Below, one piece after another: positions 29,933 to 29,960 of a DNA stretch of 64,000 nt. Below the pieces are notes generated by a model, which saw nothing but the letters and a program-made list of their open reading frames with translations, did no database searches and was not told the DNA's origin. The translations under genes were made by a program, and so were the position numbers. Each line of letters opens with the position of its first letter. The first letter of the stretch is position 1. The DNA is from a phage: the NCBI GenBank assembly GCA_036252695.1, contig GCA_036252695.1_4122.1; one strand, 5' to 3'.

Positions 29933-29960
29933 GGGACAAAAAACCAATAACTGATATAAT
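29933..29960 (+). promoter_or_regulatory. sigma70-like promoter (GTGGGACA-N16-TGATATAAT)
   Basis: Same architecture as the promoters at 19184 and 48945. Confidence 0.4.

Follow-up and report, generated by a model that had tools for sequence, protein, structure and literature searches.

Between the genes for a CCA-adding enzyme and a nudix hydrolase, a 64-kb stretch of phage DNA (contig GCA_036252695.1_4122.1; all 64,000 nucleotides are called the window here) carries a promoter-like sequence composed of the box TGGGACA, 13 nucleotides (nt) and the −10 element TGATATAAT. This locus raises the question of whether such sequences form a promoter class of their own and, if so, which sigma factor reads them. 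We confirmed a recurrent TGGGACA promoter class, with about 35 promoters per genome, beyond chance. Comparison with related jumbo phages suggests, with a probability that we place near 0.55, that these boxed promoters are read by the phage's own sigma factor, which would redirect the host core polymerase. The window is AT-rich (30–40% GC), carries genes on the + strand over most of its length, and is 99.5–99.8% identical to the Escherichia jumbo phages vB_EcoM_G17, Sharanji and 121Q; we assign its source to Asteriusvirus (121Q/G17-like jumbo coliphage, ~350 kb).

Three boxed promoters in the window

The pattern TGGGACA-N13-TGATATAAT, in which N13 denotes any 13 nt, has exactly three matches in the window, all on the + strand. 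These sites and one weaker candidate, scored with the position-weight matrix (PWM) described below, are as follows:

19183–19211, + strand: promoter site 1, (A)TGGGACA, 13 nt, TGATATAAT; predicted transcription start site (TSS) ~19218
29932–29960, + strand: promoter site 2, (AG)TGGGACA-N13-TGATATAAT; predicted TSS ~29967
48944–48972, + strand: promoter site 3, (AG)TGGGACA-N13-TGATATAAT; predicted TSS ~48979
24615–24643, + strand: weaker candidate member, TGGGAAA-N13-TGCTATAAT; PWM score 19.6, the lowest among 37

An earlier note on this DNA had proposed the three promoters, and they are present where it put them, its coordinates spanning exactly GGGACA-N13-TGATATAAT while the preceding G/T lies 1–2 nt further 5′; the 16-nt spacer that it gave between GGGACA and TATAAT was found at all three sites. 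The shared upstream box (A/G)GTGGGACA that it described is borne out for sites 2 and 3 but not for site 1, which reads AATGGGACA. Given that GTGGGACA occurs only twice in the window, the common core is TGGGACA. The three sites share only the box and the −10 element, their spacers and flanks being unrelated, and thus they are not repeat copies.

The −10 element TGATATAAT and the 16-nt hexamer spacer of each site fit the sigma-70 pattern of TATAAT with an optional TGn and a spacer of 16–18 nt, and a generic sigma-70 scan scored site 1 at 10/12 with TG. The box GGGACA, on the other hand, agrees with the −35 hexamer TTGACA at four of six positions, lacks its two T's and is not a canonical −35 element. 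The sites also differ from the T4 late promoter form, which has TATAAATA at −10 and no −35, in having TATAAT and a box instead. Site 1 starts directly 3′ of the stop codon of a DUF7325 gene (18769–19182). Site 2 lies 7 nt 3′ of the stop of the CCA-adding enzyme gene (28813–29925) and 42 nt 5′ of the nudix ATG (30002), and site 3 is followed by GGAGAG at 48994–48999 and, 35 nt from the promoter, by an ATG at 49007. The weaker candidate overlaps the end of an open reading frame (ORF; 24236–24625), with the next ATG only ~12 nt away, and is kept in the related phage Turkey3 as TTGGGCAA; a further candidate at 27507–27535 (AATGGACG...TGTTATAAT) lies inside an ORF and was not counted. With up to three mismatches allowed, the 29-nt pattern matched the window five times against a mean of 1.5 in shuffled sequences, and none of the 100 shuffles reached five.

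A genome-wide class distinct from canonical promoters

Genome-wide counts were made in a relative, ECO103 4-12-1 (hereafter ECO103), a complete, unannotated genome of 351,992 base pairs that was assembled here and is 98.5% identical. The family was called with an iterated PWM, and chance levels were taken from shuffles for the window (n = 100) and from Markov-1 simulated genomes for ECO103. This search, which the earlier note had suggested, returned a recurrent and distinct class of 37 sites, every one on the gene strand, spread over 8–265 kb with one more at 322 kb. GGGACA leads among the box variants, followed by GAGACA, TGGACA, GGAACA and GGGAAA. Eleven sites read GGGACA-N13/14-TGnTATAAT, all on the dominant gene strand and nine of them with N13, while the pattern [GT][GA]GAC[AG]-N13-TGNTATAAT had 19 occurrences on the gene strand and none on the opposite one, compared with a mean of 0.03 in the simulations. 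Of the 37 PWM sites, 23 lay for the most part in intergenic sequence, although only ~7% of ECO103 is intergenic by a deliberately greedy ORF map. Boxed sites lie directly after stop codons or terminators and 13–80 nt before starts, and one precedes a tRNA-like sequence.

A second class in ECO103 has the form TTGAC(A/T)-N16/17-TATAAT, usually without TGn and with A-rich upstream sequence, and is concentrated at 300–318 kb and 0–57 kb, in regions of small ORFs. Given that this canonical class can be separated from the boxed promoters in the same genome, the latter are a real and distinct class.

ECO103 also contains a repeated composite element, GGGTTGACTTCGGTCAGCCC and a T-run followed by TAT(A/T/G)AT, in which the terminator stem holds the −35 TTGACT of a canonical promoter. 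The same element appears in the terminator table of Pectobacterium phage CBB (Torf515, Torf518, Torf520).

ECO103 (L002, L008), e.g., 328, 5227, 7884, 8067, 11309, 302442, 305194, 308461 and 311935, − strand: composite terminator/promoter elements

A lineage variant of a promoter type predicted in sister genera

Three promoter types have been predicted with MEME in CBB (Buttimer et al., 2017; PMC5259590): RpoD-like promoters with UP-like elements in the presumed early region, "divergent RpoD-like" promoters with the −35 TGAAACG, mostly near DNA-synthesis genes and before a gp55-like sigma gene, and a late ATAAATA type, the second and third being noted also in Cronobacter phage GAP32. Table S6 of that study lists 18 sites, all 29-mers of the form TG(A/G)AA(C/T)(G/A)-N13-TGNTATAAT, and its authors regarded the motif as a variant RpoD promoter, with no tie to a phage sigma or to variation among lineages (Buttimer et al., 2017).

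Our sites share with this CBB/GAP32 "Promoter 1" the 29-nt layout (7-nt box, exactly 13 nt, TGnTATAAT) and, in CBB, the kinds of downstream genes, including the gp55-like sigma, but have the box TGGGACA in place of the published TGAAACG. In an Asteriusvirus genome no TGAAACR site scored except for one TTGAAATG, and TGGGACA is absent from the CBB list. TGGGACA fits only the degenerate TG[AG][AG]A[CT][AG], and we therefore filed it as a lineage variant and not as the same motif.

Positional orthology connects the two sets. The CCA–nudix junction aligned by blastn in 71 phage records across the whole RaK2-like clade, and the positional orthologues of sites 2 and 3 are the published CBB promoters Porf_193 (TGAAACA...TGGTATAGT) and Porf_218 (TGAAACG...TGGTATAAT). 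That of site 1 is ATGAAACG-N13-TGGTATAAT (CBB locus L014, 5641–5670), which the CBB authors did not list because its distance from an ORF exceeds 100 bp, the next ORF being more than 600 nt away; orthologues of site 1 are also present in Turkey3, E. coli phage EJP2, Salmonella phage SE_PL and Xanthomonas phage XaC1. The first transcribed bases after site 2 (29961–29975), (t/g)GTATCTGA, are kept from Asteriusvirus to CBB despite diverged flanks and may be a conserved initial-transcript or leader element.

By these alignments, the boxed class represents, in Asteriusvirus, a variant of a promoter type that had been predicted before in sister genera, and what is new here is the positional orthology with CBB, the lineage-specific boxes, the parallel variation of a sigma helix, and the links to a late sigma and an RNA family. 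The searched literature, including the reports on Sharanji, phAPEC6, RaK2, ph0011 and EJP2, contained no promoter analysis for Asteriusvirus or RaK2; TGGGACA was found in full texts only as primer noise, and the CBB paper alone mentioned TGAAACG in jumbo-phage promoters among searchable full texts.

A structured RNA family behind boxed promoters

Behind site 1 there is no ORF of 40 or more amino acids spanning the transcription unit, and the unit ends in a terminator:

19212–19735, + strand: structured non-coding RNA of ~0.5 kb, transcription unit of site 1; nhmmer E 3e-96
19707–19730, + strand: terminator hairpin of this RNA, followed by a T-run; −10.8 kcal/mol, z −4.2 by folding

The terminator was missed by a generic terminator scan and confirmed by folding. 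The RNA shows blocks of conservation across genera, its indels have lengths not divisible by three, and an RNAalifold consensus of 16 sequences had 65 pairs, 34 of them with compensatory double changes, including long-range closing helices. Known families were rejected as its identity, with no Rfam 15 match at E ≤ 1 and no tRNA or tmRNA call. Its core pattern occurs 16 times in IMG/VR, on 14 seemingly complete jumbo-phage contigs of ~350–380 kb and on two of 31 kb and 137 kb, and a boxed promoter with the box of the respective lineage lies 350–390 nt upstream of the core in all 15 copies that have enough upstream sequence. ECO103 has four paralogues by nhmmer, each directly behind a PWM promoter, while some CBB-like genomes have two copies. 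The paralogues and orthologues are located as follows:

208620–208127, ECO103: RNA paralogue
128827–128386, ECO103: RNA paralogue
262027–261621, ECO103: RNA paralogue
18755–18324, ECO103: RNA paralogue, immediately downstream of the phage sigma gene
5671–6147, L014 (CBB): RNA orthologue
8796–9319, L015: RNA orthologue
5965–6437, L016 (EJP2): RNA orthologue
3095–3588, L017 (SE_PL): RNA orthologue
L023–L038: further RNA orthologues

RNA genes in this position explain boxed promoters that seem far from ORFs and give independent support for the boxed sites as transcription starts. A second conserved element, CCCCTGCGGGGGGATGnAAT..TCAACAAAnCCCGTCA, lies just after the RNA terminator (~19745–19790, + strand) and is found in all aligned lineages.

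These results bear on whether the 29-mers are promoters at all. Were they remnants of a duplicated intergenic cassette or chance matches, only the AT-richness of the genome (33–35% GC) would speak for it. Unrelated spacers and flanks, 19 occurrences where simulation expects 0.03, the complete strand bias, positions conserved across genera, and the conserved structured RNA bracketed by site 1 and a terminator make that explanation extremely improbable.

Boxes vary in parallel with the predicted recognition helix of the phage sigma

We compared syntenic 40-kb loci of six lineages for the box and −10 element, and set beside them the predicted recognition helix of each phage's sigma-70-family protein, aligned to E. 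coli sigma-70 T583–Q589:

Asteriusvirus: box (A/G)TGGGACA-N13; −10 TGnTATAAT; helix SRSSIHR with box GGGACA
Turkey3: box ACGGGACA / CTGGGACA / GCGGGACA-N13 (nGGGACA); −10 TGnTATAAT; helix ARSSLHR with box GGGACA
SE_PL: box TGGGACA-N14 (n = 5 sites); −10 TGnTATAAT, TATACT at the nudix site; helix SRTSLHR with box GGGACA
EJP2: box T/GTGAGAT(A/G)-N13 (n = 4 sites); −10 TGnTATAAT, TATATT at the nudix site; helix NRCTIHR with box GAGATA
CBB: box (A/G)TGAAAC(G/A)-N13; −10 TGnTATAAT, TATAGT at the nudix site; helix SKATLSR with box GAAACR
XaC1: box TGAAAC(A/G)-N13; −10 T(T/A/C)CTATACT in 5/5 sites, TG lost; helix SKPTLSR with box GAAACR

Site positions are conserved across genera with ~70% DNA identity or less, while the boxes are uniform within a genome and differ between genomes at the same box positions (GGGACA, GAGATA, GAAACR). 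The earlier note had remarked for three sites that the −35 element deviates from TTGACA in one consistent manner, and this is true genome-wide and across the clade. A count of box types in IMG/VR with TGAGATA-N13/14-TGNTATAAT was dropped, as the matches listed included chance matches in unrelated contigs.

One position in the window departs from this uniformity. Before an AAA+ gene (46073–47398) the earlier note had seen a distinct promoter class, and two tandem TTGACA-N13-TGATA(C/T)AAT promoters are indeed present there:

45783–45810, + strand: upstream AAA+ promoter, A-tract, TTGACA, N13, TGATACAAT
45876–45903, + strand: downstream AAA+ promoter, A-tract, TTGACA, N13, TGATATAAT

Their layout (N13-TGnTA(C/T)AAT, with long A-tracts) is shared with the boxed promoters. 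Turkey3 has the same arrangement, while at this position CBB has GTGAAACG, SE_PL TGGGACA and EJP2 TTGTGACA. They appear better described as the class layout with a host-consensus −35 and an UP-like A-tract than as an unrelated class, a switch that would probably allow early or dual expression of the AAA+ gene.

Could host sigma-70 alone account for the boxed promoters? They would then be ordinary extended −10 promoters, independent of a −35 and used throughout infection, with the box a tolerated weak −35 (GACA kept) or conserved for some other reason. At a 16-nt spacer, TGnTATAAT agrees perfectly with the host consensus, as in E. coli extended −10 promoters and reflected in the scan score of site 1; GGGACA keeps four of six −35 positions; and a true TTGACA stands in the same layout before the AAA+ gene. 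T4 early promoters, too, have a phage-typical −35 variant (GTTTAC, with TGn and an UP element) and are read by host sigma-70, and the A-tracts upstream of the AAA+ promoters resemble them. However, the uniformity of the box inside each genome, and its divergence from one genome to the next, are too great for a drifting weak −35. GAAACR and GAGATA match TTGACA at only two to three positions, Asteriusvirus and EJP2 differ in their boxes although both infect E. coli, and sigma-70 region 4.2 shows essentially no variation among the enterobacterial hosts concerned. Moreover, XaC1 has TATACT as its −10 in 5/5 sites, and a separate canonical class exists in the same genome. In contrast to E. coli extended −10 and T4 early promoters, the box here is conserved and lineage-specific, not dispensable, and the canonical early class lacks TGn. 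We consider it unlikely that host sigma-70 acts alone. A concerted, lineage-wide change of the box over many promoters indicates a phage-encoded reader.

A candidate for this reader is encoded outside the window:

19788–18826, ECO103: one sigma-70-family protein encoded in the genome, 321 amino acids; phmmer against the E. coli sigma-70 C-terminal fragment, E 5e-13

The E. coli fragment, like the T4 AsiA, MotA and gp55 sequences used as queries, may be inexact. In Pfam the phage sigma scored 37.7 for region 3 (above the cut-off) and 23.0 and 22.7 for regions 2 and 4 (just below); it reached 42.9 bits, exactly the cut-off, for TIGR02937 (sigma-70 family), E 5e-60 for phrog_351, and E 8e-25 for RpoD_Cterm, far below the equivalog cut-off. 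By these profiles it has regions 2, 3 and 4. Given that its RpoD and RpoS equivalog scores are far below the cut-offs, it is a sigma-70 family member and not an RpoD orthologue. A PDB profile search was circular, its alignment holding the E. coli sigma-70 fragment, and was not used as evidence for the family. Orthologues occur across the clade at 31–83% identity, and the protein is annotated in phAPEC6 and Sharanji, where no promoters are assigned to it. All phage sigmas have an insertion of 8–10 residues in the region 4.2 turn.

In E. coli, sigma-70 R588 contacts −33 and E585 contacts −34. Under this contact model, an H at the 588-equivalent of the phage sigmas goes with G at box position 3 and an S with A; at the 585-equivalent, S/T goes with G at box position 2 and C/A/P with A. 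The SE_PL sigma is 44–45% identical to those of EJP2 and CBB versus 38% to that of Asteriusvirus; its helix pattern and box are nonetheless as in Asteriusvirus. Region 3.0 reads P-x-(Y/H)-x-S-V in every lineage with TGn and S-N in XaC1, which lost TG. This parallel variation of box and recognition helix is suggestive, not decisive. We would give about even odds to the full statement that GGGACA is the −35 of a promoter set read by the phage sigma, whose region 4.2, with its clade-specific insertion, diversified together with the box across RaK2-like jumbo phages.

In SE_PL, TGGGACA lies one base farther from the −10 (N14; L017, 3065, 13301, 34832 and 37844), and the region 4.2 insertion of its sigma (L019) is two residues longer (VYTD). 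In this single lineage, spacing may be linked to insertion length.

A putative middle step in a transcription cascade

If the phage sigma reads the boxed promoters, host sigma-70 polymerase would act first, transcribing the early regions, including the phage sigma gene, from canonical TTGACA-N16/17-TATAAT promoters. The phage sigma would then recruit host core polymerase to promoters of the boxed class, with the box read by its region 4.2 helix and the −10 element by its regions 2.4/3.0. Activated in this way would be middle genes, namely nudix/glutaredoxin and other nucleotide and DNA metabolism genes, tRNAs, the four structured RNAs and the gp55-like late sigma, and this late sigma would in turn drive (A/C)TAAATA late promoters. 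The placement of promoters in ECO103 is consistent with such an order: the phage sigma gene region has canonical promoters upstream and no boxed promoter within 19.8–34 kb, and the gp55-like late sigma gene (phrog_12791, E 3e-154) has a perfect GTGGGACA-N13-TGCTATAAT 57 nt 5′ of it, the same placement that Porf_244 has in CBB relative to the gp55-like sigma gene there. The temporal class that the earlier note had raised is thus plausible as a middle class, inferred from position and sequence.

The earlier note had also placed T4-type late motifs before structural genes. In the window, the T4 late octamer TATAAATA is depleted in its exact form (two occurrences versus 10.5 expected; all 100 shuffles had at least two), whereas CBB-type (A/C)TAAATA is present 20–45 nt before structural gene starts (neck, sheath, tube), e.g., at 32682, 34540, 37615, 38396 and 41327.

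The cascade resembles those of SPO1 gp28 and phiEco32 gp36, in which an early phage sigma redirects the host core to phage promoters and leads on to a late factor, as inferred here. It differs in that both promoter elements are non-host in those phages, while here only the −35 box appears reprogrammed, except in XaC1. T4 middle promoters are similar in having a phage-specific element in place of the host −35 and a host-like, often extended −10, in a class that is post-early in T4. Their MotA box, (a/t)(a/t)(a/t)TGCTTtA, is centred at −30, 11–13 nt from the −10, whereas the box here is unrelated and lies at −35, and the phage here encodes a full-length sigma-70-family protein.

The T4 parallel, a phage-specific upstream element joined to a sigma-70 −10 that often has TGn, nevertheless suggests another arrangement, in which host sigma-70 holds the extended −10 and a different phage protein (MotA-like, a helix-turn-helix regulator or a region-4 remodeller) binds the box, while the phage sigma serves other promoters. 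An HTH_37 regulator two genes from the sigma gene in CBB and GAP32 could be such a protein, and the −10 agrees with the host consensus. Yet the box stands at −35, with a 16-nt spacer, and not at −30, and is tracked by the sigma recognition helix rather than by an unidentified protein. No ORF of ECO103 matched T4 AsiA or MotA below E 0.2, although this is a weak test, made by phmmer only, in which remote homologues are missed. A k-mer enrichment survey of upstream regions picked up TTGACA, TAAATA and terminator words; beyond these, no abundant orphan motif stood out that the phage sigma might serve, the only statement for which the survey was used, as its count threshold excluded GGGACA. Taken together, we regard sigma appropriation or an activator as doubtful.

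Several points weigh against recognition of the boxed promoters by the phage sigma. In the enterobacterial lineages the −10 is the exact host extended −10 consensus, usable without any −35, and the AAA+ promoters, with TTGACA in the class layout in Asteriusvirus and Turkey3, mean that the classes may overlap functionally. Two features of sigma-70, the W433/W434 pair and E458, are missing from the phage sigma, which makes its reading of TGnTATAAT unsure. The helix-to-box mapping relies on the E. coli sigma-70 contact model, and the covariation covers only six or seven lineages, which are phylogenetically non-independent. A RaK2-like Klebsiella phage (OU509535) has the sigma but no clear box in its first 200 kb, only TTGGATA, TTGAACA and TTTGACA; without a clear box this lineage is uninformative. 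Approximately one third of the PWM sites fall inside crude ORF calls and may be non-promoters, and the searched literature contained no TSS, RNA-seq or biochemical data for any phage of the clade.

Genes downstream of sites 2 and 3

30002–30434, + strand: nudix hydrolase, the first of the genes after site 2; an extra C at 30065 shifts the frame by +1
30436–30684, + strand: glutaredoxin, after nudix
48908–48933, + strand: intrinsic terminator of the AAA+/DUF2201 unit, 11 nt 5′ of site 3; −16.2 kcal/mol, z −6.2
49007–50508, + strand: genes after site 3, namely an 81-amino-acid phrog_13789 protein, a phrog_15894 protein and a DprA/YspA-like SLOG protein

From its start at 30002 (MRYSCGIIFYRDGQILIGHTT), the nudix gene can be read on into GQNHWDLPKGK only through a +1 shift at ACA-ACA-C-GGA. 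The window, ECO103 and Turkey3 have this shift in common, with the upstream frame kept through synonymous changes, and the 0-frame codon at the shift site is CGG, which is rare in E. coli. The gene is a continuous ORF in EJP2, SE_PL, CBB and the Klebsiella phage, and public annotations start it at an internal ATG (30036). The shift may reflect either programmed frameshifting or tolerated truncation. In EJP2, nudix and glutaredoxin are annotated as one coding sequence of 225 amino acids (L016, 20328–21005) and are apparently fused, while they are separate in the other lineages.

Implications for RaK2/121Q-like jumbo phages

For annotation, our results provide the real start of the nudix gene, an interpretation of ORF-less gaps as RNA genes, and a conserved structured RNA family outside Rfam. 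For RaK2/121Q-like jumbo phages they offer a testable assignment of about 35 promoters per genome to a cascade of three steps, in which host sigma-70 is followed by the phage sigma and this by the gp55-like late sigma. If the assignment is true, these phages would represent sigma/promoter pairs reprogrammed in nature, a whole series of them acting on one host polymerase, and their promoter set would include four paralogous ~0.5-kb structured RNAs per genome, a previously undescribed family. The box/helix pairs could then provide orthogonal sigma/promoter parts and allow −35 recognition to be studied in a natural experiment.

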